Of a stretch of DNA of 36,044 nt, positions 1 through 34,321 are shown piece after piece (position 1 is the stretch's first letter; each line of letters begins with the position of its first letter). Position numbers and translations under genes: made by a program. Location of the stretch: positions 1 to 36,044 of the forward strand of contig JASMDC010000035.1 in NCBI GenBank assembly GCA_030753015.1, written 5' to 3'. Origin of the DNA: Candidatus Undinarchaeales archaeon (GTDB lineage Archaea; SpSt-1190; JASMDC01). Under the pieces are notes generated by a model, which ran no database searches, was not told where the DNA came from, and saw only the letters and a list, made by a program, of their open reading frames with translations.

Positions 1-62
1 CCATGCAGATTTCCCTTTCGACTCCATCCCCTCCCTCTCGTAAGGGGACTTCCCGTCGAAAC

Positions 63-80
63 AAAAAAGAGTTAAATATA
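63..80 (+). promoter_or_regulatory. Archaeal-type promoter (purine-rich BRE + TTAAATAT TATA box) for the giant NlpC/P60 protein gene
   Basis: AAAAAAGAG-TTAAATATA at 63-80, an AT-rich island in GC-rich DNA about 65 nt upstream of ATG 144. Confidence 0.55.
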
Positions 81-143
81 CGACGAACCATAGAATTTTC
101 ATTGAACAGGGGGTGCTCCGTCGGTCGACGGGGCGATGGGACG

Positions 144-15232: not shown

Positions 15233-15368
15233 GGGAAGATTTCTGTGCTTGACGATTATTAAAGCTTGGGCCGGCAGGTCATCTGGGGGGCCCGTAAACA
15301 AGCATCCGGTGTCCGCGGTTCTTTTACTGAAGGTTTATCTATAGTGAAATTATCTACCGTATAGGGAG
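15233..15368. promoter_or_regulatory. Divergent promoter region for the two large surface protein genes
   Basis: Minus-strand TTTAATAA at 15256-15263 (24-31 nt before ATG 15232, implying a leaderless mRNA); plus-strand TTTATCTATA at 15334-15343 before ATG 15369. Confidence 0.6.
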
Positions 15369-19583: not shown

Positions 19584-19598
19584 GTATACTGTTGCCCC

Positions 19599-20561
19599 CT
19601 AAGTTTGTCCGTCAATGAATTTGATGTAAGTATTGATGTACTTGTAGATGTCGTCCGGGGAGATGGCTACCGCCAACCCCTTCTGCTCCTTTGCGCACTG
19701 CAGCGCGGCGAACAGAATCGCACCCGTTGTGGGTCCCACGAGAAGGCCCCCCTTCCTTGCTAAAAGGATTCCGGTCCTGTAGGCGTCCTCGTCCGAGACC
19801 GAGATGACCTCGTCAATAAGCGACATGTCAAGTATCTTCGGGACAAGGTCATCCCTCAGACCCGTTATCCTCTTCATCCCAGGCAGGTTGTGCTCTGCCG
19901 TTTCCGGCTCGATCCCTATCACTTTGATATCGGGTTTCTTCTCCTTTAGATACTTGCTCACACCAGTTATCGTCCCACACGTCCCGAACGCAGCGAAGAA
20001 ATAATCGATCTTGCCTCGTGTCTGTCGCCAGATCTCCGGACCCGTCGTCTCGTAGTGCGCTCGAACGTTCAGTTCGTTCTCATACTGGTTCGGGTAGACA
20101 TACGAGCCCTCGTTCCGTGGGCTCTCAGCGATGCTCTTTGCCAAGCCCCGTGCTCCCTCGTTCGGGAACAACGGACACAGGCCGTCGTCCGCCTCCCAGA
20201 GCTCGACGCCCAGGAGTCTCAACAGCTTCTTCTTCTCCTCCGGGATCCGATCAGGTACGGCGATCTCGACGGGGATGCCCCTGGCGTTCGCCAACGATGC
20301 CAAGGCGATGCCGGTATTACCTGAGGAGGGCTCGATCAAGGACTGGCCTTTCTTGATCCCGGCATGCTCCAACATCGATAAGGCGATCCTGTCCTTGACG
20401 GAACCGAAGGGATTGTACCGCTCCAGCTTGAGGTAAATCGGAAAGCCAGGATGTGGATTGATACCCTCGTTCACCCGTACCATCGGTGTCGGATTCTCCG
20501 GGTTCGAGATGAGGCCCTCTATGCTATCGTAGACCCTGAGCTGATCGTTCGGTCCTGTCAT
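19599..20561 (-). CDS. cysK: Cysteine synthase family protein (PLP-dependent, CysK/CysM)
   Basis: KLERYNPFGSVKDRIA (PLP lysine), SSGNTGIALA, NQYEN, HYETTGPEIW, GTCGTITG; GGAGGTG SD. The CysK versus CysM subtype is not resolved. Confidence 0.9.
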   Translation of the reverse strand: MTGPNDQLRVYDSIEGLISNPENPTPMVRVNEGINPHPGFPIYLKLERYNPFGSVKDRIALSMLEHAGIKKGQSLIEPSSGNTGIALASLANARGIPVEIAVPDRIPEEKKKLLRLLGVELWEADDGLCPLFPNEGARGLAKSIAESPRNEGSYVYPNQYENELNVRAHYETTGPEIWRQTRGKIDYFFAAFGTCGTITGVSKYLKEKKPDIKVIGIEPETAEHNLPGMKRITGLRDDLVPKILDMSLIDEVISVSDEDAYRTGILLARKGGLLVGPTTGAILFAALQCAKEQKGLAVAISPDDIYKYINTYIKFIDGQT

Positions 20562-20592
20562 ACATACACCTCCTTGGTATAGAGAGCGGCAC

Positions 20593-20859
20593 CTAGCCCT
20601 TCTTGATGATTATTTTTCGGGAGGTCTTGTCCACGTCGGTGGTCTCGAGCACCGTGCACCCGAGCTTATCAGCGGCGCTGAGGATGGTCTCGAAGGACGG
20701 TACGTTGTCGGTAACCACCTCGAGCACATCCCCGGAGGAGAGCGTCTTCAAGGCCCTCCTCACAAGGACCTCAGGGTAGGGGCAGGAGTATCCCAACGCA
20801 TCCAGTGCGTACCGCCCCTTTTCAAGTTCCTCAAGACCGAGCTTTCCATGTGATGTCAT
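20593..20859 (-). CDS. tusA: TusA/SirA family sulfur carrier
   Basis: LDALGYSCPYP (CPxP) and GDVLEVVTDN motifs; GAGGTGA SD. Confidence 0.9.
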   Translation of the reverse strand: MTSHGKLGLEELEKGRYALDALGYSCPYPEVLVRRALKTLSSGDVLEVVTDNVPSFETILSAADKLGCTVLETTDVDKTSRKIIIKKG

Positions 20860-20860
20860 C

Positions 20861-22357
20861 CTATTTCACCTCTAGTTGTACCATCGATCCCAGTTCCTCT
20901 GCTGAATGTGATGCGCAGAACTCTGCGAAGTCCGCAAAACCCTCCTTCAGACAGTAGTCCACGAGCCTCTCGATCACGTCCCTCACGTGCTCCGGGTCCA
21001 CCTTCTTCGCCACGAGCTTGCTGAGCTGCGCCTTCTCTCCAAGCCTGCCGCCGAGGTAGATGTGGTATAACTCCCTGGCCTCGCTCGCGCTCACCGGAAT
21101 GCCCATCAGGCCTATGTCCCCAGTCGTCCGCAAGCAACAATCGTTCGGGCACCCGGACACGTACAGCCTCAGCTTCAGGTCATCGAGAGCCGTGCCAAAG
21201 CGACGCTCTAGATGCTCGACGATCCCCCTCGCCATCTGCTTTGGATAGGGTTCTGCGGCTTTTCCACAGAAGTCGGCCGCGCAGCCGATTGCCGTCCATC
21301 GGAGCGGCGGGCCCCGAACTGGCAGGTCTATGTCCCCAAGCTGCTTCAGGGCGTCCTCCAGCCCGTCCTGGGGGATGTTCACGAGGATCATGTTCTGGAA
21401 CGTGGTGTTCCGAACCTCGCCGCTCCCGAACTCGTCGACGATGTCGGACACGCGCCGCATGCGCTCGCTGGAAAGGATCCCCCCGATCAGCGGGATGGTG
21501 ATGAAGTAGTTTCCGTCCTTCTGTTCCTGGATCCCGCTGTGCTCTTCGCCGCTTATCCTCGGGCGGACCTCGAGCGGCTCCAGCTTCCTGCCCAGCTTTT
21601 CTTCGAGCTTCTCCCTCACCTGCTGGACGCCCCAGTTCGCGACCAGGTACTTGAACCGCGCCTTCGCCTTGCTCTCGCGGTTGCCGTGGTCCCGGTGGAT
21701 CTCGGCCATGGCCCGGGTGACGTCGAAGACATCGGAGGGCTTGATGAACGCGCCCAGCGGCTCGGCGAGCCTCGGCCCCGGCTGCGTCGCCCCGACCCCT
21801 CCACCGATGAGGGCAGCGAATCCAACCTCACCCTCATGCTCCACGGCGAACAGCCCTATGTCCTGGACCTCGGGCTTGGTGCACCTGATATCACACCCCG
21901 TGATCGAGATCTTGAACTTCTTGGGCATGTCGAGGAAGTCCCGGTTGCCGATGAAGAAATCGTTCATCTTCTTGGCCAGCGGCCGGACGTCGATGAGCTC
22001 GTCCCTGTCGACGCCTGCTACCGGGCACACGACGATGTTCCGAACATCGCCGTACCGCGCCCCCGGAAAGGCCTGGCCGCATTTGTCGGTGGTGAATCCG
22101 AGCTTCTCCATCCGGGCAAAGGCCTTCGGCGCATGCTCACCCTCTATCCAGTGGAGCTGTATGTCCTGTCGATCCGTGATCTCCGTATAGCCGCGGCCGT
22201 AGTCGTCGGACATCTGGGCGATGGCGCGGAGCTGTTCAGATGTCAATGTCCCGGCCGGGACCTTTATCCTGAGGAACTGATGGGAGCCGAGCCCCCGGTC
22301 TCTTCCCAGAGAATATCTGTCCATGAACCGCATGAGGTCGTCGGTTTCTATCTCCAT
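20861..22357 (-). CDS. sir: Ferredoxin-dependent sulfite (nitrite/sulfite family) reductase, siroheme/[4Fe-4S] hemoprotein
   Basis: LRIKVPAG, ITDRQDIQLH, VRNIVVCP, MPKKFKISITGC, KARFKYLV, CAADFC...SGCPNDC ligands; the operon context favours sulfite. Confidence 0.9.
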   Translation of the reverse strand: MEIETDDLMRFMDRYSLGRDRGLGSHQFLRIKVPAGTLTSEQLRAIAQMSDDYGRGYTEITDRQDIQLHWIEGEHAPKAFARMEKLGFTTDKCGQAFPGARYGDVRNIVVCPVAGVDRDELIDVRPLAKKMNDFFIGNRDFLDMPKKFKISITGCDIRCTKPEVQDIGLFAVEHEGEVGFAALIGGGVGATQPGPRLAEPLGAFIKPSDVFDVTRAMAEIHRDHGNRESKAKARFKYLVANWGVQQVREKLEEKLGRKLEPLEVRPRISGEEHSGIQEQKDGNYFITIPLIGGILSSERMRRVSDIVDEFGSGEVRNTTFQNMILVNIPQDGLEDALKQLGDIDLPVRGPPLRWTAIGCAADFCGKAAEPYPKQMARGIVEHLERRFGTALDDLKLRLYVSGCPNDCCLRTTGDIGLMGIPVSASEARELYHIYLGGRLGEKAQLSKLVAKKVDPEHVRDVIERLVDYCLKEGFADFAEFCASHSAEELGSMVQLEVK

Positions 22358-22400
22358 TTCAGTGCCCCCTGCATCGTATGTCAGATTGAAACATCTATTG

Positions 22401-23369
22401 TCACACTTCCTTGAGCCATCGCGCAGCGTCTTTTGCGAAGTAGGTGATGATGAGGTCCGCTCCGGCCCGCTTGATGCTGGTCAGCACCTCCATGGCCGTC
22501 GCCCTCTCGTCCAGCCACCCGGATCTGGCCGCGGCCTTCACCATGGAGTACTCGCCGCTGACATTGTACGCTGCGGTTGGATGACCGAACCGTTCCTTCA
22601 CCCGCCGGATGATGTCCAGGTACGGTAGGGCCGGTTTGACCATGACGATATCGGCGCCCTCGTCGATGTCCAGGGCCACCTCCCGCAAAGCCTCCTCCCC
22701 GTTAGCAGGGTCCATCTGGTAGCTTCGTCGATCCCCGAATTGGGGAGTCGAGTACGCCGCCTCGCGAAAGGGACCGTAGAAGGAGGACGCGAACTTGGCA
22801 GCATAGGACATGATACCGATGTGCTCGTACCCTGCACCGTCGAGCGCGGTCCTGATGGCACCCACCCGCCCGTCCATCATGTCCGACGGCGCCACCATGT
22901 CAGCTCCCGCCTCTGCGTGGGACCGTGCGACCTTGGTAAGCAGGTCGAGAGAGGGATCGTTGAGCACGCTGCCGTCCGAGACCACGCCGCAGTGACCCGA
23001 TGTAGTGTACTGGCAGAGGCACACATCGGTGATGACCACCAGTCTGTCGCCGTAGGCCTCCTTGAGTGCGGTAACGGCCTGCTGCACTACACCCTCCGAA
23101 GACGAGGCAGAGGACGCATTTGGGTCCTTTTTCAGGGGGATGCCGAAGAGGAGCACCGCAGGGATTCCGAGGTCCACCACGGACCGGGCCTCTTCCACTA
23201 CGCCCTCGTATGGGACGTGGAAGACGCCCGGCATCGAGGGGATCTCGCTCTTCTCGGTGATGCCCTCCCGCACGAACAAGGGTGCGACCAGGTCGTTGAC
23301 GCTCAGCTGCGTCTCCCGCATCATCCTCCGGATGGCCTCCGAGCGGCGGAGCCTCCGGGGTCGTATCAC
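22401..23369 (-). CDS. hemB: Porphobilinogen synthase (Zn-type)
   Basis: [56 protein letters not shown]; the true start may be CTG at 23384 (see findings). Confidence 0.97.
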
Positions 23370-23439
23370 CGGGAAGCCGGACAGGACGATCCCCCCTTGG
23401 TAAAGATCACGTTCTCGTTATAATACAAAATTGGCATGT

Positions 23440-24771
23440 TCACCCACCCCCTCCACTCACCATGCTCCCGAAAGCGCGGTCGGCGATGGCGATAGTCTCC
23501 TCGATGTCATGGTCCGAATGTGCAGTGGAGACGAACCCGGACTCGAACTGTGATGGTGCGAGGTTGACACCTGCGGACTGGAGCGCCCAGAAGAACCTTG
23601 CGTACCGTGCCGTGTCCGATCCTTTGGCAGTTGCATGGTCCCGGACCTCCGTTGTTGTGAAGAACATCGAGAACATGGACCCTACTCTGGTGGGGAAGAC
23701 ATCCACGCCATGTTCTTCGGCAGCAGCTGTCAGACCCTTGTCGAGAGTGGACGATGCCCGCTCGAGACGATCGTACACACCTTCACGTCCAAGGACCTCG
23801 AGGGTCTTGATACCTGCGCGCATCGCAACGGGATTCCCCGAGAGAGTCCCTGCTTGGTAGACCTTACCGATGGGTGCGACCTGTTCCATTATGTCCCTCC
23901 TTCCTCCGTAGGCCCCTACGGGGAATCCCCCGCCGATGACCTTTCCTAGACAAGTTAGGTCCGGGACAACGCCGAACCGGCCCTGCGCTCCGTTGTACCC
24001 GACCCGGAACCCTGTGATCACCTCGTCGAACACGAGCAGGATGTCCTCGCGGTCGCAGATCTCCCGTAGACCCTCCAGGAATCCCTCACGTGGCGGTACG
24101 ACACCCATGTTCCCGCACACGGGCTCGAGGATGATGCACGCGATCCTGCCACGGTGGTTCTTCACGACGGTGTCAACAGCGAGAAGGTCGTTATATGGGA
24201 GCGAGATGGTGTTCCTCGCAAAGTCAGCAGGCACGCCCTTGCTGTCGGGAACACCAAGGGTCAGTCCGCCTGATCCGGCCTGGATGAGGAGATGGTCCAC
24301 ATGACCGTGGTAACAGCCATCGAACTTGATGATAATGTCCCTGCCCGTGAATCCCCGGGCGAGACGGATCGCGGACATGGTGGCCTCGGTGCCGGAGTTG
24401 ACCATTCGCACAAGCTCCACGGCGGGCAGCGCTTCCACGATCATCCTGGCCAGTGTGGACTCCATCTCGGTGGGTGCACCATAGCTCACACCCCGCTCGG
24501 TCTGGTCCCGCACGCACGCCATCACCTCGGGGTGGGCATGGCCGAGGATGAGGGGACCCCAGGAGCACACATAGTCGATGTACTCCTTCCCGTCGACATC
24601 ATGGATCCTCGATCCCGTGGCCCGTGACACGAAGAACGGATTCCCCCCCACACCACTGAAGGCACGGACCGGGCTGTTGACTCCTCCTGGGATATAGCTT
24701 TTCGCAAGGTCGAACAACTTCTTCGAGCGTTCCCCACGTTCCGGGACATGAGTTCCTGTATCGTTCATCAT
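23440..24771 (-). CDS. hemL: Glutamate-1-semialdehyde 2,1-aminomutase
   Basis: IPGGVNSPVRAF, NSGTEATMSAIRLARG, FDEVITGFR, LGKVIGGGFPVG, YQAGTLSGNP. Confidence 0.97.
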   Translation of the reverse strand: MMNDTGTHVPERGERSKKLFDLAKSYIPGGVNSPVRAFSGVGGNPFFVSRATGSRIHDVDGKEYIDYVCSWGPLILGHAHPEVMACVRDQTERGVSYGAPTEMESTLARMIVEALPAVELVRMVNSGTEATMSAIRLARGFTGRDIIIKFDGCYHGHVDHLLIQAGSGGLTLGVPDSKGVPADFARNTISLPYNDLLAVDTVVKNHRGRIACIILEPVCGNMGVVPPREGFLEGLREICDREDILLVFDEVITGFRVGYNGAQGRFGVVPDLTCLGKVIGGGFPVGAYGGRRDIMEQVAPIGKVYQAGTLSGNPVAMRAGIKTLEVLGREGVYDRLERASSTLDKGLTAAAEEHGVDVFPTRVGSMFSMFFTTTEVRDHATAKGSDTARYARFFWALQSAGVNLAPSQFESGFVSTAHSDHDIEETIAIADRAFGSMVSGGGG

Positions 24772-26321
24772 GGTACTCGTTCCCCTCCGTCCTCAGAGGT
24801 CGTATCTCGTAGATGGCTCTCGAGCGCTGCCACGAGGCCCTCCATGGTCGACGTCGTCGCTACAACATCAGACTCGATACCAAGTTCCCTGACCGCCGCA
24901 GCGGTCACAGGACCGATGCAGGCGATGGTGGCCGCGCCCCCTGCAAGGAGCTCGGTCCCCTGGCTCCCTATGCCCTTGAAGAACGTCTTGACCGCTGAAG
25001 GGCTCAGGAAGGTGATGGTGTGGAGCCCTCCCGACTCGAGTTGCGCGATGAGGCGTTCTCCGTCGAAGTCGCATTCCACGGTCCGGTAGACGGGGAGGTC
25101 ACGGACCTCGGCCCCCATCCGGGATAGCCCGTCCGGGAGCGCGGGGTTGGCCCCGGCTGCCCGTGGGATAAGGACCTTCTTCCCCTCCAGTGACCTTTCG
25201 CGCAGCACGGCCAAGAGTCCGTTCGATGTGAACACTTCTGGCACTACGGAAACGGTCACGCCTCGTGACTCCAGCTCTTTTGCGGTCACGGGTCCGATGG
25301 CCCCGACGGAGGACCGGGAGAGCGTTTGTGGCGAAACGCCGCAAGCATCCATCCTGTCAAGGAAGGTACGGACTCCGTTGACGCTTGTGAAGAGCACCCA
25401 ATCGTAGTGGTCGATCCGCAGGACCTCCTCCTCGATCGCCCTTGTATCGTCCAGACCCTCCACCGCGATGACCGGCACGACCTCGGGGACCGCACCAGCA
25501 CCGGTGAGGAGCCGGCTGAAGGTATCGGCCTGTGCTTTCGGTCTCGTTACGAGGACGGTCTTCCCGGCAAGCGGGCTTGGCACGAACCAACTCAGCCTCT
25601 CTCCCAGAGGTACCACGTCACCGATCACGATAACCGCCGGAGGTCGGATGCGTGCATTGGCAGCTTGTTCCACAAGCTCGCACAGGGGAGCATTGACGGT
25701 CCGCTGACGATGTGTCGTTCCGTCCTCTATGATCGCTGCGGGGGTGCCTGCATCGACACCCGCATCGAGGAGGTTCTGCACGATGTGTGAGAGGTTCGCC
25801 ACGCCCATGAGGATGACTAGGGTCTGGGCACGGTCGGTGAACTCGTTCCATCGGATGGACGGAACGGTCTTTATCGGGTCCTCGTGTCCTGTGAGGCAGA
25901 TGAAGGAGGAGGCATGTCGTCTATGTGTCAGAGGGATCCCTGCATAGGCGGGTACTGCGATGGCCGACGAGATGCCAGGGACTATCTCGAACTCGATCCC
26001 GGCCTCGACCAGACGTTCCGCCTCCTCACCGCCCCGACCGAACACGAAGGGATCGCCCCCTTTCAACCGGACAACTCGCTTTCCCTTTAATGCTAGGTCG
26101 ACGAGGATGTCGTTGATCTCCTTCTGGCTACGGCCTTCCCCTCCCGGAACCTTCCCGACATGGATGAGCTTGCATCCAGCTCCTACCTCGGAAAGGAGCA
26201 CAGGGTCCACCAGACGGTCGTACACGACGACGTCCGCGTTCCGGATCACCTCCATCCCCTTGACGGTGATGAGCCCGGGATCCCCCGGCCCCGCTCCTAC
26301 GAGATAGACCTTGCCAGCCAT
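24768..26321 (-). CDS. cobA: Fused uroporphyrinogen-III C-methyltransferase / uroporphyrinogen-III synthase (CobA-HemD)
   Basis: VYLVGAGPGDPGLIT, RLKGGDPFVFGRGGEE; C-terminal half PLAGKTVLVTRP, WVLFTSVNGV, AIGPVTA, CIGPVTA. Confidence 0.96.
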   Translation of the reverse strand: MAGKVYLVGAGPGDPGLITVKGMEVIRNADVVVYDRLVDPVLLSEVGAGCKLIHVGKVPGGEGRSQKEINDILVDLALKGKRVVRLKGGDPFVFGRGGEEAERLVEAGIEFEIVPGISSAIAVPAYAGIPLTHRRHASSFICLTGHEDPIKTVPSIRWNEFTDRAQTLVILMGVANLSHIVQNLLDAGVDAGTPAAIIEDGTTHRQRTVNAPLCELVEQAANARIRPPAVIVIGDVVPLGERLSWFVPSPLAGKTVLVTRPKAQADTFSRLLTGAGAVPEVVPVIAVEGLDDTRAIEEEVLRIDHYDWVLFTSVNGVRTFLDRMDACGVSPQTLSRSSVGAIGPVTAKELESRGVTVSVVPEVFTSNGLLAVLRERSLEGKKVLIPRAAGANPALPDGLSRMGAEVRDLPVYRTVECDFDGERLIAQLESGGLHTITFLSPSAVKTFFKGIGSQGTELLAGGAATIACIGPVTAAAVRELGIESDVVATTSTMEGLVAALESHLRDTTSEDGGERVP

Positions 26322-26333
26322 GTCAAACAGACC

Positions 26334-27266
26334 TCATGATCCTCCTTGTTGTTGTGGGGTTCCTTTGAGGAGGTCCAACCCCCCCAGTGAGACCAGTTTC
26401 TTTGCGAGCTTGCTTGCGGTCCCGGAACCGTCATCGGGAGATCCTTCACCCGCTAGGTCGATCCTCCATTTCCCGTCGGGGGATGCCACGGCCACCTGCA
26501 GACGAAGGACAGTGGAGGACATGCGGGCAAGCACGCCAATTGGGACCTGGCACCCTCCGCCAACCCCCTCAAGGAAGCAACGCTCCGCAGCAACCTCCTG
26601 CCGGCTCGAAAAGTGGTCCACCCTCTCCAGGATGGAACGTATCTCATCATCATCGGCTCTCGCCTCCACACCGATGGCGCCCTGCCCCGCAGCAGGCGTG
26701 ATGACGTCCTCGGGTATGACCGTGGTCCTGACATCTTCTGGTCGGAGCCGGAGGATGCCGGCCTGCGCCAGGATGACGGCGTCAAGCTCACCGGAGCGCA
26801 CCTTCTCGATCCGGGTGTCGACGTTACCCCTGATGTCCATGATGTTAAGGTCGGACCTTGCGTAGAGGGCAAGCGCTCGCCTCCTCAGGCTGCCGGTACC
26901 CACCTGAGCGGCGCTGTGGATATTCTCCAGGGTGCAACCATCCGTCGTGATGAGGGCATCCCGGGGATCCTCCCGCTCCAGGATGGCTCCAAGTGCGATC
27001 CCCTCGTCCCGCTCCACGGGGATGTCCTTCATGCTGTGCACGGCCACGTCCACACGGTCGTCCAGGAGCGCTCGGTCGATCTCCTTCACGAACATACCCT
27101 TGTCCTGCACCTTAGGTGTGCGATCACTCCCGACCGCATCCCCCGAGGTCCGTATCTTGACGATCTTTGTGTCCTGATCGGGGAACGCGCTACTCAGCTT
27201 TTCAACAAGGATCTCGGCCTGGCGCATGGCAAGCCTGCTACCTCGGGTCCCGATCCTCAATGTCAT
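26334..27266 (-). CDS. hemC: Hydroxymethylbilane synthase (porphobilinogen deaminase)
   Basis: RIGTRGSRLA, KGMFVKEI, AVHSMKDIP, GTGSLRR, IRGNVDTR, GGCQVPIG; ATGA overlap with hemA. Confidence 0.97.
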   Translation of the reverse strand: MTLRIGTRGSRLAMRQAEILVEKLSSAFPDQDTKIVKIRTSGDAVGSDRTPKVQDKGMFVKEIDRALLDDRVDVAVHSMKDIPVERDEGIALGAILEREDPRDALITTDGCTLENIHSAAQVGTGSLRRRALALYARSDLNIMDIRGNVDTRIEKVRSGELDAVILAQAGILRLRPEDVRTTVIPEDVITPAAGQGAIGVEARADDDEIRSILERVDHFSSRQEVAAERCFLEGVGGGCQVPIGVLARMSSTVLRLQVAVASPDGKWRIDLAGEGSPDDGSGTASKLAKKLVSLGGLDLLKGTPQQQGGS

Positions 27267-28552
27267 CTTCGCATCCCCTCGATGAGAAGTCGCTGGTCGG
27301 GCGCAGCGTCCAGTTCGAAGAGGTCACGGACGGATTCCGCCTGCCGCTCACCCTCCGCGGAGGTCGCCTGCATCCTCAGGTTCCTGACAGGGTCCTCGAG
27401 AATCTTCTTGGTGAGGCTACGGCTCATGTCATGGATGATTCTTCTGTCTCGCTCGGAGAGCTCGCCCAGCATGGCGAGTGCCCGCCTGAGCTCGCGTGAC
27501 CTGATGTCCTCGATCCTCGAGTAGAGGGATGAGATGATCGGTTCGATGTGGATGCGGGAGAGCCGAGCGGTGAACGTGGCCACCTCGTCCTCGACGATGT
27601 GTTCCGCTCGATGGGATTCCTTCTGGCGGTTCAGACGGTTCTCCTCGGCGATCCGGTCCAGCGAGTCCATGTCGTGGAGATGTACGCCTTGGATCTCCGT
27701 GATGGCCGGATCGAAGTCCCGGGGGACCGCGATGTCGATGATGTGGAGGTCTCGCTCGTTCTCCTGCCCCACCCGTGCCTTGATGACCCGTTCCATATCC
27801 TCTCGTCGTACGATGTGGCGCGGGGCGGCGGTCGAGCTGATGACCAGGTCCGCTTCCACGAGAGCGTCCTGGAGACGGTCGAGCCGCTGGGCCGTCCCTC
27901 CAAAGCGCCGGGCGATCCGTTCCGCCTTCGTAAAGGTCCGGTTGGCAAAGATGATCGTCCCCACTCCTTTTTCCGCGAGAATGCCCGCGATCAACTCAGC
28001 GTTCTTACCTGCGCCGATCACGAGCACCTGCTGGAGCCCTGTGTCGTCGAACAATCCTTCCGCGAGCTTGACCGCGGCCGAGGCCACTGAGACGGTCCCC
28101 CGAGACACACCTGTGACGGTTCTAACCCGCTTCCCGACGCAGACCGCTTTCTGGAAGATACGACCCAGGACCGGGCCCGAGGTCCCGTTCTCCTCGGAGG
28201 ATGCGAGCGCATCCCGGACCTGGCCAAGTATCTGACCCTCCCCGACCATGAGCGAGTCCAGGCTGGATGCCACACGGAACAGGTGCCTGATCGCGTCCGC
28301 ACCCGAGTAGGTATAGACCACGTTCCTGAGGGCCTCCATATCCGTTCCTGACGCTTCTCGGATTATCTCGAGCGTCGTTGCGATCAGGTCATCCGCGCTC
28401 TCTCCGACCGAGTAGACCTCCAACCGGTTGCACGTTGCCACCACGACCGTCTCAGTCATCCTCTGGCATGGTAGGAGATCGTTGACGCGGCGCAGGGTGC
28501 GCTTGGATGTGAACCGTCCCCGGACCGAGAGGGGGGTGGTCAGGTGGCTCAT
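27263..28552 (-). CDS. hemA: Glutamyl-tRNA reductase
   Basis: TCNRLE, HLFRVASSLDSLMVGEGQILGQV, VIGAG, DIAVPRD; the true start is probably ATT at 28573 (see findings). Confidence 0.96.
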   Translation of the reverse strand: MSHLTTPLSVRGRFTSKRTLRRVNDLLPCQRMTETVVVATCNRLEVYSVGESADDLIATTLEIIREASGTDMEALRNVVYTYSGADAIRHLFRVASSLDSLMVGEGQILGQVRDALASSEENGTSGPVLGRIFQKAVCVGKRVRTVTGVSRGTVSVASAAVKLAEGLFDDTGLQQVLVIGAGKNAELIAGILAEKGVGTIIFANRTFTKAERIARRFGGTAQRLDRLQDALVEADLVISSTAAPRHIVRREDMERVIKARVGQENERDLHIIDIAVPRDFDPAITEIQGVHLHDMDSLDRIAEENRLNRQKESHRAEHIVEDEVATFTARLSRIHIEPIISSLYSRIEDIRSRELRRALAMLGELSERDRRIIHDMSRSLTKKILEDPVRNLRMQATSAEGERQAESVRDLFELDAAPDQRLLIEGMRR

Positions 28553-28554
28553 CC

Positions 28555-29190
28555 CTACGACGACGATGTGAATTCCTCAACCCTCCGTACGATCTCTGTC
28601 TCAGAGGCCCCGCCTTTGAGTAGGTCCAGTAGCACCTGGTGTGGGATGGCATTGAAGAACGCCATCCTCTCCTCGACGTTCACCAGCCTTCTCTTGACCG
28701 TTGGTCTCAGGCTACCAAGGATGTCGAGGAGCCTTCCGTACTCCTCTCCATACAAATCCCCCAGCTCCAGCCGTATGCTCCTGGCCAGGGCCGGGCTCTT
28801 CCCGTCCGTGCCGACGGCTATGGTGAGAGATCCCCTTCGGAGCACGGATGGCATGATAAAGTCGCTGTCATCGCGGGAGTCCGCGACGTTGACGATGGTT
28901 CCGTTGGCGCGGGCATCACGAGAGACGGCCGAGTTCATGGCCAGGTCATCGGTGGCAGCGATGACGAGGAATGCATCCCGGACGTGTTGTACCTTGTACT
29001 CCTCTCGGATGTGGATCACCCTGCCCTCGCCCTCAAGTTCCGCGATCCCCGGAGTAACGTCCGGGCTGACCACCGTCACCTGCTCAGTACAGCGAAGGAT
29101 GGAGCGGACCTTGCGTTCAGCGACCGTTCCGCCGCCGACAACGACACACCGCCGATCTTCAAGATGGAGATTGACCGGGAACGCGTCCAC
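28555..29190 (-). CDS. sirC: Precorrin-2 dehydrogenase / sirohydrochlorin ferrochelatase (SirC/Met8p/CysG N-terminal type)
   Basis: VVVGGGTVAERK, VIAATDD, VNVADS..DFIMPS, TIAVGTDGKSPALA; GTG start with GGGGTGAT SD. Confidence 0.93.
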   Translation of the reverse strand: MDAFPVNLHLEDRRCVVVGGGTVAERKVRSILRCTEQVTVVSPDVTPGIAELEGEGRVIHIREEYKVQHVRDAFLVIAATDDLAMNSAVSRDARANGTIVNVADSRDDSDFIMPSVLRRGSLTIAVGTDGKSPALARSIRLELGDLYGEEYGRLLDILGSLRPTVKRRLVNVEERMAFFNAIPHQVLLDLLKGGASETEIVRRVEEFTSSS

Positions 29191-29252
29191 GCATCACCCC
29201 CCCTCTCCAGGCTTCTAGTCCTGATGTGCCTCCGTGCTCGAACGATCTCAGC

Positions 29253-30416
29253 TCAGATCCCTCCTCCATCCTGGTAGTGCATCGCTAGGATCTCGGCGAC
29301 CTCGCCTCGTGTGCACTCCTTCGGCAGGGACGCTCCGATTCTCAGGAGTTCACGTACCTTCGTACCGCTTAAGAATATGTGGTCGCTCTTTGGATGCGGG
29401 CACGTTTTAGTTGTGGCCATGGCATCGCATCTCTTGCAGTAGAAAGCATGGTCGAACATAATGGGCGTGATCGAGAGCTCCTCCATGGTGAACTCCAGAA
29501 AGAGATTCTGCGCGTCGAACGTGCCGTAATAGTTACCCACACCCGCGTGATCCCTCCCAACGATGAAGTGGGTGCACCCGTAGTTCTTCCGAACGAGCGC
29601 GTGGAAGATGGCTTCCCGCGGTCCCGCGTATCTCATGGCCGCTGGGAACACGCTCAATTGGACCCTGTCCTTCGGGTAGTATTCCTCTATGGCGGACTCG
29701 TAGGAGTTCAATATGACGTTGGCAGGTACGTCCCCCTTCTTGGTCTGTCCGACAAGAGGGTGGATGAGGAGTCCGTCGACGGTCTCCAAGGCGCACTTCT
29801 GGATGTACTCGTGCCCCCTGTGGATGGGATTCCGCGTCTGGAATCCCACCACTGTCCTCCAGCCCTTCTGCTCGAAGGACTTCCGCGTCAGAGCCGGATC
29901 GAGACAGTACTTCTCCAAGGAACCGTGGCCTGGTCTGCGGAGCAGGGTTACCTTCCCCCCCACGAGCGTCTCGCTGTCCGAGTAGATCTTATTCACACCT
30001 GGGTGGTCGATGTCAGTGGTCCGGAAGACGAGACTGGCTTCCTTCTCCTTGTCGCGGGTGAACTTCTCCTCGATCCTGATCGTCCCGAGGATCTCGCCCG
30101 CAGGTGTTGAGAGGGCACGCTCGTCGCCGACATCGATCCCCTTCGCTACTGTTTTCGTCACGGGGAGCGTGATAGGCAGTGACCAGATGAGGCCGTTGGA
30201 CAGCCTCATTTCCTCCACCACGCTCAGATAGTCCTCCTGCGTCATGAAACCCTCAAGGGGACTGAAGGCGCCAACTGAAATGAGCTCGAGATCGGCGATG
30301 GACCACTCATCGAGCTCTATCCGTTGGAGCTCACCGGCCTCACGGCACGCCTCTTTCCCTTTTCTCTCTGATACGGTCCTGTCGATGAGCCGGCCGCCAT
30401 GCGGTGAGATCGTCAT
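29253..30416 (-). CDS. sat: Sulfate adenylyltransferase (ATP sulfurylase, Sat type)
   Basis: Start reassigned to ATG 30416 ([11 protein letters not shown]) to remove the overlap with cysH; [41 protein letters not shown], CxxC..CPH, LSGTKVR. Confidence 0.97.
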
Positions 30417-30427
30417 TGCGTCACGTC

Positions 30428-31153
30428 CTAACACTGCTTTCTTCCCGGATGCAGACCGCATTCCTTGGTGTCGGGTGATTCCCACCACCAGCGACCAGCC
30501 CGGACGTTCTCTCCCGACTCGATCGCCCGGGTGCAGGGCTCGCATCCGATGCTCGGGAAGCCCTTGTCGTGGAGCTTGTTGTAAGGGATGTCGTTCTCCT
30601 TGATGTAGGCCCAGATCTCCTCCTCGCTCCAGTCGGCCAGCGGATTCAGCTTGACGAGCCCGTTCCCCTCGTCCCACTCCACCTTTGGCAGCCCCACCCG
30701 GGTGGTGGACTGGGCCCGGCGGAGGCCGGTGACCCACGCGTCAAGGACCGAGAGGGCCCTTTTGAGAGGTTCGACCTTCCTGATGACGCAGCATTCCCTT
30801 CGGTTGTCCACGCTCTCCTTGAAGGAGAAGAATCCCTTCTGCTCAGAGAGCTCTTGAAGGGCCTTCGTGTCGGGGGAGTAGACCACAAGCTCCTTGCCAT
30901 ACTTCTTCCTGACCTCCTCCATGACGGAGTAGGTATCCTCGTGGAGCCGTCCCGTGTCCAGGGTGAAAACCTTCACGTCAGGTCGGGCCTTCAGTGCCAG
31001 GTCCATCAGTACCACGTCCTCTGCCCCGAAGCTCGAGGCGATACCGATCTTGGGGGAGAAGCGGTCGATGGCCCATATAAGGACCTCCTTCGCGTCAGCA
31101 TTCTCAAGTTTTTTGTTCGCGGCTTCGATTTCTTCTTTGATTGATTCGTCCAT
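30428..31153 (-). CDS. cysH: Thioredoxin-dependent adenylylsulfate (APS) reductase, CysH family, [4Fe-4S] type
   Basis: [52 protein letters not shown]; AGGTGAT SD. Confidence 0.96.
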
Positions 31154-31171
31154 CTTGTATCACCTGTAATG

Positions 31172-31915
31172 TTAGATGAGCATGAGCTTGACTCCCGAGA
31201 GCGCGACCATCGAGCCGATGGCGAGGTTAATCCTCCTGTTCTCCATCGTTAGACAATAGTGGCTTCCGATCAACAATCCCGGTATGGCCCCCAGAGTGAG
31301 GTCGAACGTGAGGCTGTAGTCCACGATGCCCATTGAGATGAACGCCGCGGTGGCCGGGAGGGAGAGGAGCGCCATGATCATGAGGTTCGTGCCCACTGCC
31401 TTCCTCGGCTCGAGGCCGTTGATGTGTATGAGCGCTATGATGATGAACGGTCCGCCTATGGAGCTGATGCCCATGAGGAGGCCGATGAGGAGAAAGTACG
31501 ACACGAGGAGGACGTTCCTCCTAACGCTGAAATTCGACGGGTCGTGGGATTGATGCTTTTCTTCCTTCTTGAAGAGAAAGGACAGGGCCGCTGCGATGAG
31601 GATAACTCCGAGGAACTGACTAAGGAGCCATTCGGGGAGCGCTCCGAGAAGGCGGGCACCCACGAGGATCCCCGGGATCCCCCCGACCAGCACGGGCGGT
31701 ATGTACCGCAGGTCATAGTTGTCGTGCCCCATGTGCGTCATGGTCGCGATCGATTTCATGATGGTCCCGAAGAGCATGTTGGACGCGACGACGGTCCGGG
31801 GATCGATCCCGAAGATGGAGAAGAGGATGGCCATCCCTATGATTCCCATCCCGATGCTGGTCATCCCCACTACCCCCCCCACGAGGAAACCGACGAGCAC
31901 GTAGGCGGGATTCAC
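31172..31915 (-). CDS. TauE/SafE (TSUP) family sulfur-compound transporter, paralog 2
   Basis: Multi-TM protein; GFLVGGVVGMTSIGMG, AVGTNL, GAIPGLLIGS; GTG start. Confidence 0.88.
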   Translation of the reverse strand: MNPAYVLVGFLVGGVVGMTSIGMGIIGMAILFSIFGIDPRTVVASNMLFGTIMKSIATMTHMGHDNYDLRYIPPVLVGGIPGILVGARLLGALPEWLLSQFLGVILIAAALSFLFKKEEKHQSHDPSNFSVRRNVLLVSYFLLIGLLMGISSIGGPFIIIALIHINGLEPRKAVGTNLMIMALLSLPATAAFISMGIVDYSLTFDLTLGAIPGLLIGSHYCLTMENRRINLAIGSMVALSGVKLMLI

Positions 31916-32034
31916 GATCCGACATCACCACTCGATTGCCCGGACCCGCTCCCGGTGTCCAATGGGTCATTGTCCTGCGGAATGGAGATGGTCGGGCACA
32001 TTCTTCTCACCGAACCAATCCTACCACTCATCAT
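31912..32034 (-). CDS. Putative 40-aa small ORF coupling into tauE paralog 2
   Basis: MMSGRIGSVRRMCPTISIPQ...; ATGA overlap with the upstream 14-aa ORF and GTGA overlap with the tauE2 start. Confidence 0.3.
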   Translation of the reverse strand: MMSGRIGSVRRMCPTISIPQDNDPLDTGSGSGQSSGDVGS

Positions 32035-32075
32035 CTTACTCCAGCCGCACACCTGTTTAAGAGGTTATCGTCCAT
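32031..32075 (-). CDS. Putative 14-aa small ORF MDDNLLNRCAAGVR
   Basis: AGGTGA SD 5 nt upstream of ATG 32075, just after the tauE1 stop. Confidence 0.35.
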   Translation of the reverse strand: MDDNLLNRCAAGVR

Positions 32076-32091
32076 GCCTTTCACCTTTCGG

Positions 32092-32841
32092 TCAGAAGAG
32101 CATGAGCTTCATGCCCGAGAGTGCGATCATCGAGCTGAGCGCAAGATGCATGTTCTCCTGCTTCGACCTAACACAGAAATGGCTCCCGATCAGCAGTCCG
32201 GGAAGGGAACCGAGCGTAAGGTTCATGGCGAGCGGTATGTCCACGAGGCCCATGTGAAGGAAGGCGAGCGTGGCCGGGATCGAGAGGAGTGTCGCGATCA
32301 CCAGGTTCGTGCCCACGGCTTTTTGCGGTTCGAGGCCAAGGCCTCCGACGAACATGAGGATGAAGAACGTTCCGCTCCCCATCGAGCTCAAGCCTATGAC
32401 GAGACCTATGGAGAGGCTGCTTGCCATTATGCTAATCCTCGTACGACGGTTCATCGTTGATAGTTCATGTGGGTGGCTCTCCCCCTTCTTCTTCAAGAAG
32501 AAGGCGAGCGCTGCCGTCATGAGGATCGCTCCGAGGGACCTTCTCAGGATCCATTCCGGGAGCGCTCCGAGCAGTTGGGTCCCTATGAGAACTCCGGGGA
32601 TCCCACCCATAAGGGCCGGAATGATAACTGCCTTTTCGAGGTTCTTATAGCTGGCATGCCTCAGCGCAGCTATCGACTTCATGAGGGTTCCAAAGAGCAT
32701 ATTTGAGGCCACCACGACCTTCGGATTGATACCGAAGACGAAGAGAAGTGACGAGGCTCCAATGGTACCTAGACCTATCCCGCTCAATCCCACGAGCCCT
32801 CCCACGAGGAAACCGAGGATCACTAATGCTGGTTCTATCAT
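32092..32841 (-). CDS. TauE/SafE (TSUP) family sulfur-compound transporter, paralog 1
   Basis: Multi-TM protein; GFLVGGLVGLSGIG, GLSSMGSG, AVGTNL, GSLPGLLIGS; AGGTGAT SD. Confidence 0.9.
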   Translation of the reverse strand: MIEPALVILGFLVGGLVGLSGIGLGTIGASSLLFVFGINPKVVVASNMLFGTLMKSIAALRHASYKNLEKAVIIPALMGGIPGVLIGTQLLGALPEWILRRSLGAILMTAALAFFLKKKGESHPHELSTMNRRTRISIMASSLSIGLVIGLSSMGSGTFFILMFVGGLGLEPQKAVGTNLVIATLLSIPATLAFLHMGLVDIPLAMNLTLGSLPGLLIGSHFCVRSKQENMHLALSSMIALSGMKLMLF

Positions 32842-32866
32842 GTGGTATCACCTATCAGTATTCTTG

Positions 32867-32920
32867 TCAGAACGTTCTGCGCGCCTTGCCGCACTCTACT
32901 GAACGGCGGCAGACGGACAT
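32867..32920 (-). CDS. Putative leader peptide uORF3, MSVCRRSVECGKARRTF
   Basis: ATG 32920 to TGA 32867, two TGC codons, ends 25 nt before the tauE1 start. Confidence 0.35.
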   Translation of the reverse strand: MSVCRRSVECGKARRTF

Positions 32921-33003
32921 TGCTCCCACGAATCCCCGAAGGGGGTCGAGCGACCGCTCCCCGGATGTGAGGGCTCCGGGTCACTAAGAAGAAGAAATCG
33001 ACG

Positions 33004-33081
33004 CTACTGCTGGGATCCTTTGTGCTGCGACCGACAAAGGCACTCCCCCCAGGGGACCTTGCGATCGTTCACAGAGAGCAT
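33004..33081 (-). CDS. Putative leader peptide uORF2, MLSVNDRKVPWGECLCRSQHKGSQQ
   Basis: ATG 33081 to TAG 33004; same GECLCRS core, same frame and same core-to-stop distance as uORF1; followed by TTTCTTCTTCTT. Confidence 0.5.
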   Translation of the reverse strand: MLSVNDRKVPWGECLCRSQHKGSQQ

Positions 33082-33174
33082 ACCCGCCGGTAGCGAGAGG
33101 TGTTGTGCGTGGAAAGAAGAAAGGTTGCTACTCAGAAGGGGCCTGTGGATGCGACCGACAAAGGCACTCCCCCC
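33026..33174. repeat. Perfect 25-bp direct repeat (33026-33050 and 33150-33174) in the sulfur operon leader
   Basis: TGCGACCGACAAAGGCACTCCCCCC twice, 124-nt period; the flanks also share GCTACT and AAGAAGAAA. Confidence 0.95.
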
Positions 33175-33181
33175 GAGTCAT
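33128..33181 (-). CDS. Putative leaderless leader peptide uORF1, MTRGECLCRSHPQAPSE
   Basis: ATG 33181 lies 25 nt downstream of the TTTTATAA box, at the expected TSS; TAG 33128 is followed by CAACCTTTCTTCTTT. Confidence 0.6.
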   Translation of the reverse strand: MTRGECLCRSHPQAPSE

Positions 33182-33220
33182 ATCACAATAGTTATGTTTT
33201 ATAATTTATAAAAGTTTCGA
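33182..33220. promoter_or_regulatory. Promoter/operator of the sulfur operon: BRE + TATA (palindromic, possibly bidirectional) and ATAACTATTGTGAT operator
   Basis: Minus strand reads CGAAAC-TTTTATAA-ATTATAAAAC-ATAACTATTGTGAT-ATG; 33197-33213 is TTTTATAA-T-TTATAAAA; the operator at 33182-33195 matches the 17975-17988 core at 12/14. Confidence 0.75.
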
Positions 33221-33325
33221 ATTGCGCCCCCGTCGCTCTCAGAGAGCCTTGCACTGCTAGGTTAGTTGAGAATATAGGGGAAAGGAGTTTGTCTTTATGC
33301 AGGATCGACGCGATCGGGAGAGAAG

Positions 33326-34321
33326 GTGAGCATTGTGACGGTGGAGCCATCATTCCGTGACCTCTTCATCGAGATCACTGGTAAGTGCAACCTCAAATGC
33401 TGTCATTGCTTTCGGCCCGAATGTGAGGAGATCGATGTTCCCGTCAAGGAGCTTAAGGACCGGATTCACCAGGTCAAGTCCAACAACATCATCCTCACCG
33501 GAGGAGAACCGACACTACACCCGGACCTTCGTCACATCATTAGCATTGCAAAGGAGCGAGTTGGCGAGGATGGGAAGGTCATCCTGATCACGAATGCTGC
33601 AAGATGGTCCGAGGCGATCATGCGCACCATCTACGAGGCCGACGTGGTGAACGTATCACTCGACTGGGCTGATGACCGACATGACGAGAACAGGGGCATG
33701 AACGGGCTTCAAGAGAATGTTGGCAGGCTTATCGATCAGCTCACTACGATGACGATGCCGCACAAGGCTCGACCGAAGATAAACCTCTTGGTCACGATGT
33801 TCCATGAGAACATGGATGCCGATAACATAGACGCTATCGTCAGGTTCGCGCACGAGCACAACGTGGACGATATCGTCTTTGATAGGTATGTCCCTTGTTT
33901 CAGCAATCCTTCCGCTTTGACAACCGCGGAAATGAAAATCGCCCTCGAATCCCTCGACGCTCTGAGCTCGGAAGCAGACGCCTCCACGGGATCACCACAG
34001 ATCACAATATATGAAATCTTTGCCAACATACTCTACGGGTACTCGACACCGCGGTGCCGATGCAAGGGTAGGGTGTTCTGTGACATCTACGGGAAATGGT
34101 CGCCATGCCCCTTCTACCCGGTAAGGTTCGACAATCCATCGAAGGTGGTCCACGAGCGGGCACAGGAGGACCTTCCGGGAGCTTGCATCGGTTGTGAGCA
34201 TGCCGACAGCTGTCACGGTGGATGCCCTGCGACCCGTCTTGTCGTACATGGTACGCTTAAGAAACGAGATCCCCTGTGTCCGTTCAGGGTACCAATTGAT
34301 TTCCAGGAAAAAGGTGCCTAG
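33326..34321 (+). CDS. Radical SAM protein with C-terminal SPASM domain
   Basis: EITGKCNLKCCHC (CxxxCxxC), LTGGEPTLHPD, ITNA, NVSLD; SPASM CRC..G..SPCPF..CIGCEHADSCHGGCPA..DPLC; alternative GTG start at 33335 after AGGTGA. Confidence 0.92.
   Translation: MSIVTVEPSFRDLFIEITGKCNLKCCHCFRPECEEIDVPVKELKDRIHQVKSNNIILTGGEPTLHPDLRHIISIAKERVGEDGKVILITNAARWSEAIMRTIYEADVVNVSLDWADDRHDENRGMNGLQENVGRLIDQLTTMTMPHKARPKINLLVTMFHENMDADNIDAIVRFAHEHNVDDIVFDRYVPCFSNPSALTTAEMKIALESLDALSSEADASTGSPQITIYEIFANILYGYSTPRCRCKGRVFCDIYGKWSPCPFYPVRFDNPSKVVHERAQEDLPGACIGCEHADSCHGGCPATRLVVHGTLKKRDPLCPFRVPIDFQEKGA

Follow-up and report, generated by a model that had tools for sequence, protein, structure and literature searches.

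A tandem repeat with Cys codons in the leader of an archaeal sulfate-assimilation operon: a possible ribosome-sensed cysteine leader

The spacer upstream of a sulfate-assimilation gene cluster in a Candidatus Undinarchaeales archaeon carries an exact 25-nt direct repeat, the two copies of which are spaced 124 nt apart and encode, on the minus strand and in the same frame, the motif G-E-C-L-C-R-S inside a short open reading frame (sORF). As judged from the sequences compared, the repeat and the selective constraint upon it are real. We tentatively read the region as a lineage-specific, ribosome-dependent, cysteine-sensing cis-regulatory leader RNA of a sulfate/siroheme/cysteine operon. The initial annotation of this DNA had proposed that both copies fold into a similar hairpin using different 3' arms, a claim that is only half right. 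Throughout the text, the window refers to the whole stretch of DNA that was analyzed (36,044 nt).

Genomic Context of the Repeat

The repeat lies in a 490-nt spacer between a minus-strand gene of the TauE/SafE family (Table 1) and a divergent, plus-strand radical-SAM gene that starts at position 33326 or, more likely, at a GTG at 33335. Downstream of the spacer, the minus-strand cluster encodes two TauE/SafE-family paralogues and then a thioredoxin-type APS/PAPS reductase (CysH), and continues on the same strand with ATP sulfurylase (Sat), a CysG N-terminal siroheme module, HemA, HemC, CobA-HemD, HemL, and HemB. The cluster also encodes a NirA/Sir-type sulfite reductase and a CysK/CysM-type cysteine synthase, and this gene content indicates that the repeat element is the leader of an operon complete for the assimilation of sulfate and the synthesis of siroheme and cysteine. 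Inspection of the neighboring genes revealed no candidate regulator gene beside the operon. The radical-SAM neighbor fits no named equivalog and scores below every NCBIfam cut-off, with the PapB family reaching only 52.6 bits (cut-off, 340).

The genome is archaeal, with four TBP genes and a G+C content of 60%, and the DNA of the window is present in marine and seawater metagenome runs. DNA contigs from the sequencing runs were identical to the window over the parts of the leader that they covered (32829-33148, 33174-33343, and 33057-33210), with no natural variants among them. The single RNA library yielded contigs at 30527-30863 and 33238-33416 only, neither of which covers the leader.

Table 1. 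Features of the leader in 5' to 3' order of the minus strand, with positions in the window.
Feature	Position	Strand	Remark
Archaeal promoter	33205..33219	minus	BRE-like CGAAAC followed by TATA box TTTATAAA
sORF1, putative leaderless 17-codon ORF	33128..33181	minus	MTRGECLCRSHPQAPSE, stop UAG; Cys codons 6 and 8
Hairpin 1	33130..33178	minus	Outer stem ACUCGGGGGG with CCUUCUGAGU; inner pairing differs between the two species
Core copy 1, invariant 25-mer	33150..33174	minus	24/25 positions kept in the relative L029
Pyrimidine tract 1	33111..33124	minus	CCUUUCUUCUUUCC; part of the repeated unit
Small spacer hairpin	33083..33097	minus	Stem of 6 bp with an ACC loop; immediately 5' of sORF2
sORF2, 25-codon frame	33004..33081	minus	MLSVNDRKVPWGECLCRSQHKGSQQ, stop UAG; translation doubtful
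Segment A	33052..33067	minus	CGAUCGCAAGGUCCCC; upstream pairing partner of core 2 in minimum-energy and centroid folds
Core copy 2, invariant 25-mer	33026..33050	minus	25/25 positions kept in the relative L029
Variable 3' arm of copy 2	33009..33025	minus	Contains ACAAAGG and CCCAG of hairpin 2
Pyrimidine tract 2	32986..32997	minus	UUUCUUCUUCUU; part of the repeated unit
Third, degenerate core copy	32950..32962	minus	GGGGAG followed directly by CGGUCGC
Shine-Dalgarno sequence and ATG of the first structural gene	32839..32853	minus	AGGUGAU; TauE/SafE family gene, 32092-32841

The Repeated Unit and a Third Copy

The two cores of the window are identical at all 25 positions, including the synonymous ones, as the initial annotation had stated, and the 17 nt that follow match at just 4 positions (hand count on the alignment). 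The similarity is not confined to the core, as the repeated unit spans approximately 70 nt and consists of the core, the 17-nt variable stretch, the sequence AGUAGC, which includes a UAG in frame, and a pyrimidine tract. In both copies, the UAG stop occurs exactly seven codons after the GECLCRS motif. A repeat search within the 25-mer identified no inverted repeat or dyad symmetry.

A third, degenerate copy located further downstream corresponds to the core minus exactly the 9 nt for Cys-Leu-Cys. The gapped pattern of this copy has three matches in the window, all within this leader, compared with 0.11 expected; genome-wide, the pattern occurs at five other places and a reversed control pattern at 11.

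Promoter and Short Open Reading Frames

The TTTATA hexamer of the promoter begins 31 nt before the ATG of sORF1, and the BRE-like element, the TATA box, and their distance to the ATG are conserved in a metagenomic relative (L029, see below). When TATA-like hexamers were located relative to the ATG at 1328 crude gene starts of this genome, they peaked at -31, -30, and -29 (20, 30, and 21 matches, respectively, vs. 0-13 elsewhere from -45 to -16), and the Shine-Dalgarno-like motifs of other genes peaked at -16 to -9. The sharp TATA peak approximately 30 nt before the ATG suggests that leaderless messages are common in this genome, and sORF1 has the promoter geometry that is typical of the genome's leaderless genes.

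In the relative, sORF1 keeps its frame, length, and stop despite seven nucleotide changes and has gained a third Cys codon (GCC to UGU), and each of the five codons that follow the motif differs from that of the window. The enrichment of Cys codons is modest (2 of 17 codons in sORF1, 2 of 25 in sORF2, and 3 of 17 in the sORF1 of the relative). That each sORF in the window contains just two Cys codons, and that these are non-consecutive, speaks against sensing by a ribosome. The ATG of sORF2 is AGG in the relative, which retains a GTG at 33072 in the same frame; neither the sORF2 start nor this GTG is preceded by a good Shine-Dalgarno sequence.

The initial annotation had placed the Cys codons within the 5' arm of the hairpins, such that a stalled ribosome would block folding. 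This description is true of hairpin 1, which a ribosome could plausibly block given the leaderless promoter geometry of sORF1, but it is weakened for the second copy by the loss of the sORF2 start codon in the relative. Hairpin 1 begins at position +4 and could itself hinder leaderless initiation.

Conservation in a Metagenomic Relative

The comparative set consisted of one metagenomic relative, the TauE of which is 92% identical to that of the window; another contig (L030) was identical to the window. Across the two cores, 49 of the 50 positions are kept in the relative. The four-fold degenerate sites of TauE, which were used as a measure of neutral divergence, differ at 25 of 133 positions (18.8%), and a single change among 50 core positions has a probability of P ~4e-4 against this background (binomial arithmetic). 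This comparison of two closely related sequences indicates that nucleotide-level constraint acts on the core.

The other parts of the leader are conserved to different degrees. The segment comprising AGUAGC and tract 1 (33132-33108) is conserved at 24 of 25 positions and the segment with tract 2 (33008-32984) at 22 of 25, with two T-to-C transitions inside tract 2. Segment A differs by a single C to U change, the 3' arm of copy 2 by two substitutions, one of which turns a G-C pair into G-U, and the 17-nt variable stretch of copy 1 is identical at 11 of 17 positions. The 74 nt before the Shine-Dalgarno sequence of TauE (32929-32856) have an identity of 50%, far below the conservation of the first 250 nt at the 5' end of the leader.

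In arm 1, the seven changes swap one inner helix for another, with the folding energy maintained overall. When substitutions were placed at random on these sites, 14% of trials did as well (p 0.14), so the changes are not significantly structure-preserving and the preservation of structure in arm 1 is only suggestive.

Folding of the Leader RNA

All pairings listed in the initial annotation for copies 1 and 2 (in copy 2, CUGGG with CCCAG and CCUUUGU with ACAAAGG) were present in the minimum-energy folds of isolated 54-nt units. Hairpin 1 had an energy of -22.7 kcal/mol in the window and -21.9 kcal/mol in the relative, and hairpin 2 had an energy of -17.6 kcal/mol as an isolated unit of the window. 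Compared with dinucleotide shuffles, copy 1 of the window gave a z of -2.02 (9 of 200 shuffles folded as well) and copy 2 a z of -0.55 (55 of 200); the corresponding values in the relative were -3.1 and +0.83. When the 5' part was fixed and only the 3' arm was shuffled (2000 shuffles each), copy 1 folded better than expected in both species (p 0.0225 in the window and 0.0055 in the relative), and the hairpin of copy 2 was not above chance (p 0.43 and 0.58, respectively). The plus-strand fold of copy 1 was not significant (z +0.18).

The proposal of two similar hairpins, with 3' arms that diverge yet keep pairing, is therefore supported statistically for copy 1, which beats its shuffled 3' arms, but not for copy 2. 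A CGGUCGCA loop had been assigned to both copies; this loop is partly paired in copy 1 of the relative, and no common secondary structure fits all four copies, i.e., the two copies in each of the two species. When the structures of hairpins 1 and 2 were imposed on the four-copy alignment, 65.8 and 76.7% of the cells were paired, respectively, vs. 38-58% for slid controls, and compensatory changes across the four copies were found in 0 of 19 and 0 of 15 pairs. The RNA-level constraint that had been deduced from the hairpins stands in the sense that the core is constrained at the nucleotide level, but the two hairpins are not one conserved structure.

In folds of the repeats in context, core 2 pairs in both species with segment A and not with the 3' arm of hairpin 2, and this pairing is within the range of shuffles (p 0.18 in the window and 0.13 in the relative). 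The whole 344-nt leader is no more stable than its shuffles (z -0.16). In the small spacer hairpin, RNAalifold on the window and the relative identified two of six pairs that are changed on both sides yet paired and one that is changed on one side. The survival of this hairpin through two double changes argues that the minus-strand RNA is under selection, and among the features compared between the two sequences it is the best evidence for such selection.

Several ways in which the fold could control the operon were considered and set aside. No bacterial-type terminator, i.e., a hairpin followed by a U-run, was found in the leader. The pyrimidine tracts contain no T-run longer than three and are unlike the T-runs that are enriched after the stop codons of this genome (TTTCTT, 1.8x; TTTTTT, 4.4x), and the leader has no terminator-like sites; a role of the tracts as ordinary terminators is not supported. 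A classical attenuator with 1:2, 2:3, and 3:4 pairings was rejected since minimum-energy folds with core 1 blocked showed no pairing between arm 1 and core 2. The masking of the ribosome-binding site was rejected as well, as blocking the core in silico did not consistently open the Shine-Dalgarno sequence of TauE, the unpaired probability of which was 0.35 when the core was free and 0.28-0.40 when it was blocked in the window, and 0.58 and 0.34-0.51, respectively, in the relative. A T-box-like reading was not supported because the interaction of tRNA-Cys with the core (-26.6 kcal/mol) is ordinary among tRNAs, with tRNA-Ser being the best (-31.5 kcal/mol). Box C/D sRNA and K-turn readings were judged by eye, and the box sequences do not fit.

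Searches for Further Copies and Related Leaders

The 25-mer has no occurrence in the 3.85-Mb genome beyond the two copies, with the one three-mismatch match falling inside a long ORF, and an nhmmer search of the same genome with the four units gave a best other match with an E value of 1.3. With up to three mismatches allowed, the motif had no match in the 16 other genomes of the phylum, and 400 archaeal genomes contained four matches in three genomes, vs. eight matches for a reversed control. The lack of another genomic copy is more in keeping with a local attenuator that evolves fast than with a binding site shared by a regulon. At the DNA level, the 419-nt leader had no match beyond chance in 40 relatives, and a six-frame search for the peptide motif yielded chance-looking matches only, including one between two genes (C37:14191) without nucleotide similarity. 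Rfam 15 gave no match to positions 32700-33400 on either strand at E values up to 10.

The TauE query retrieved only two distant bacterial matches from the genome contig collection. A genome of the same genus (G001) had no match to TauE and a CysH-like match of just 25% identity, and thus provides no orthologous leader. CysH was present at 47-53% identity in 8 of 150 other archaeal genomes, and no leader ORF with Cys codons was recognized upstream of cysH at these loci (the upstream regions of six loci were inspected and the other two were judged from the ORF map), with the limit that cysH need not be the first gene in those archaeal operons. In the ORF map, a neighboring ORF overlaps cysH without a spacer at one locus (L040), and the spacer is 28 nt at another (L045). 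At a third locus (L041), a frame that opens with ATG and includes a Cys-Cys pair continues into cysH, perhaps as an N-terminal extension. The known distribution of the element comprises two closely related organisms of one uncultured marine lineage.

A Cysteine-Sensing Leader and Its Alternatives

In the model that we tentatively favor, transcription most likely begins at the A of the sORF1 ATG (33181) and would produce a leaderless message. The leader consists of a tandemly duplicated unit and a decayed third copy, and each unit combines an invariant core coding for Cys-Leu-Cys with an anti-core stretch that evolves freely, a UAG in frame, and a pyrimidine tract. A ribosome translating sORF1 may read the supply of charged tRNA-Cys. 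If cysteine is short, the ribosome would stall at codons 6 and 8 and cover the core, such that hairpin 1 and the other pairings between core and anti-core would be blocked, with more read-through into the operon as the probable result. If cysteine is ample, the ribosome would leave at the UAG and the core would pair, and the transcript may then be ended, processed, or destabilized at or after the pyrimidine tracts. As proposed here, the core must pair with arm 1, segment A, and arm 2 in addition to encoding the sensing codons, which would place every base under constraint, synonymous sites included. We do not rate this model higher because its output step is missing. With greater reserve, we consider it possible that the element is an archaeal ribosome-sensed cysteine attenuator in a narrower sense, with a leaderless 17-codon ORF, a core that acts as a multi-partner pairing module, and an output without a hairpin terminator (e.g., factor-dependent termination or cleavage at the pyrimidine tracts).

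The invariance of 25 bases in four copies, including synonymous positions, exceeds what codon sensing needs, and it may also be that the core is an RNA site recognized independently of translation, either by a trans-acting protein, following a logic like that of PyrR or TRAP, or by a small-molecule ligand, as in tandem riboswitches. We regard this reading as rather unlikely, and similarly the idea that binding to the core decides which anti-core segment pairs. It would account for the core of copy 2, which is kept though its start codon is not conserved, for the third copy, which keeps both core ends and drops the Cys-Leu-Cys codons, and for the retention of structured neighbors on the minus strand. 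Recurrence is the rule for riboswitch classes and regulator sites, however, and the core matched no Rfam family, has no other copy in its own genome or in the 16 genomes of the phylum, and is found at no more than control frequency in the 400 archaeal genomes; moreover, its copies share no common secondary structure and no regulator gene candidate adjoins the operon. Strict base-by-base conservation would likewise be expected if the cores were DNA operators for a transcription factor, with site 1 (+8 to +32) blocking RNA polymerase or serving the divergent radical-SAM gene, which we consider improbable. A usual position for archaeal repressors is immediately past the transcription start, where core 1 overlaps the predicted start region on its downstream side; core 1 is also upstream of the divergent promoter. 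Site 2 would assist through cooperative binding or looping, an equally improbable addition. Site 2 is, however, 124 bp into the transcribed part of the leader, the 25-mer lacks dyad symmetry, the common unit runs past the core to the in-frame stop and the pyrimidine tract, and no further site occurs in the genome, where the one three-mismatch match falls inside an ORF. Strand-specific signals also favor RNA over DNA, i.e., the G-U pairs of hairpin 1, the plus-strand z value of copy 1, and the compensatory changes in the spacer hairpin. Both the RNA-site and the DNA-operator readings account for the synonymous identity, and for the copies that look untranslated, no less well than the ribosome-dependent model does, and they fit poorly with the occurrence at a sole locus, the asymmetry of the core, and the strand-specific signals.

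That the repeat is a functionless remnant of a tandem duplication is very improbable. The element is confined to one lineage and most of the proposed helices are no better than chance, as a remnant would have it, but a perfect 25-mer amid randomized flanks, in both copies and in both species, is unexpected under neutrality. The far better conservation of the 5' 250 nt of the leader compared with the 74 nt before the Shine-Dalgarno sequence also speaks against a remnant. Least probable of all, in our view, is that the sORFs encode GECLCRS micropeptides that bind thiols or metals or serve as precursors (RiPP) for the divergent radical-SAM/SPASM-like enzyme. The two frames do share a motif at an equal distance from the stop, and the radical-SAM neighbor weakly matches peptide-maturase models, such as PapB at a score far below its cut-off. 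Selection on a peptide does not explain the identity at synonymous sites, however, and none of the residues that follow the motif is kept in the sORF1 of the relative, in which the sORF2 start is also lost. In addition, sORF1 has only four residues before the motif, which is too short for the usual leader region of a RiPP, and the sORFs are located on the strand of the sulfate operon and within its leader rather than with the radical-SAM gene.

Comparison With Known Regulatory Leaders

In the trpL and hisL leaders of E. coli, a leader ORF rich in codons for the end product overlaps alternative RNA pairings upstream of the operon. The archaeal leader is similar in that a short ORF with Cys codons overlaps RNA that can pair alternatively before a biosynthetic operon, but it differs in having no terminator of a hairpin plus U-run and in that the alternative pairings are not statistically supported. 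Attenuation by PyrR and TRAP relies on repeated protein-binding sites along one leader or operon. Several strictly conserved RNA copies also occur here along one leader amid divergent hairpins, whereas no candidate for an RNA-binding regulator and no other genomic copy was found, and the copies lie in frames with Cys codons. Tandem riboswitch architectures include guanidine-II, with two similar small hairpins, and tandem glycine aptamers. These resemble the arrangement described here in that two similar short elements follow each other in a 5' leader and the conserved bases are on one side; the present element, on the other hand, belongs to no Rfam family, has no shared covarying structure, and is limited to two closely related organisms.

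The closest likeness is to mycobacteria, in which cysteine operons are attenuated by leaderless polycysteine sORFs (Canestrari et al. 2020, 10.1101/834739). The mycobacterial and archaeal elements share a short ORF with Cys codons that is leaderless, or putatively so in the archaeon, and comes first on a transcript of cysteine or sulfur genes, the placement of the Cys codons in RNA that can pair, and a stalled ribosome as the proposed sensor. The archaeal element differs in its host, in its promoter of TATA box and BRE, and in its tandem repeat with an invariant 25-nt core. The mycobacterial sORFs were defined by at least two consecutive Cys codons (10.1101/834739), whereas the codons here read Cys-Leu-Cys. 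Furthermore, a stalled ribosome is described as unmasking the ribosome-binding site in the mycobacterial Ms5788A case (10.1101/834739), whereas blocking of the core in silico did not consistently change the accessibility of the TauE ribosome-binding site. Intrinsic termination in Archaea is described as driven by poly-U without hairpins (PMC7289017), and the output step would on this account differ from that of trpL and hisL. On the basis of the sequence features, the element may best be filed as a lineage-restricted variant of Cys-codon leader control with a proposed mechanism.

Significance for Archaeal Sulfur Metabolism

The element is known to date from a single uncultured marine lineage, which restricts the evidence as well as its generality. 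Archaea couple transcription to translation, yet a full-text literature search, judged by title and abstract, found no archaeal leader-peptide attenuator. If the attenuator reading is true, the leader would be the first case of leader-peptide attenuation described in Archaea. If the core binds a factor or a metabolite instead, the element would represent a new cis-regulatory RNA of archaeal sulfur metabolism. The regulation of archaeal sulfate assimilation is little known, and a leaderless ORF with Cys codons at the head of a complete sulfate-to-cysteine operon offers a concrete element of approximately 200 nt for testing attenuation in Archaea.

Leader elements and gene neighborhood

Downstream of the two exact copies of the 25-nt core, the leader of the sulfate-to-cysteine operon contains a third, degenerate copy, and the nine bases absent from it are exactly those coding Cys-Leu-Cys. 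In the homologous leader of L029, a metagenomic relative, this copy differs from that of the window by one mismatch. The pairing of the small hairpin preceding sORF2, the 25-codon frame around the second core copy, also survives in L029, where two of its base pairs are substituted in both partners and a third in one partner. In another archaeon (L041), the cysH upstream region contains a short direct repeat, TTGGGGCACCC, present twice and located 3' of a conserved TATA-like box; this repeat could be an unrelated regulatory element for sulfate assimilation in that lineage.

Features of the window and of the L041 cysH locus
Feature	Position	Strand	Description
Giant ORF	3-6032	+	2009 codons
Giant ORF	7793-15301	-	2502 codons
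Single-strand gene cluster	18198-32841	-	Sulfate activation/reduction, siroheme, sulfite reductase, cysteine synthase
Third core copy	32950-32962	-	Degenerate; GGGGAG, then CGGTCGC without gap
Small hairpin	33083-33097	-	6 bp, ACC loop; immediately 5' of sORF2
Radical-SAM protein gene	33326-34321	+	Cys-rich C-terminal region, SPASM/twitch-like
cysH upstream region	L041:2205-2500	reverse	~190 nt, G+C-rich

The gene cluster encodes a complete siroheme pathway from glutamyl-tRNA and is followed by an RnfG/FMN-bind domain protein. The ribosome-binding context (AGGTGATAC, a few bases, ATG) is near-identical for TauE1 (context at 32847-32853) and CysH (context at 31160-31170), both on the minus strand. 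Searched with TauE, G001, a genome from the same genus, gave no match; searched with CysH, its sole match was 25% identical. The window's own genome measures 3.85 Mb, compared to 0.6-1.2 Mb for its classmates in the reference set, a size difference that is unusual for a single phylum as small as this one (17 genomes), and carries four TBP genes (contigs C44, C48, C53, and C65).

The radical-SAM protein reached no equivalog cut-off in NCBIfam, its top models (50-74 bits) being tungsten-cofactor maturase, MoaA, AhbD, NirJ, and PapB-type. An RNA-library contig covers 33238-33416 at this locus. As its gene adjoins the siroheme operon, the protein could be a tetrapyrrole-modifying enzyme.
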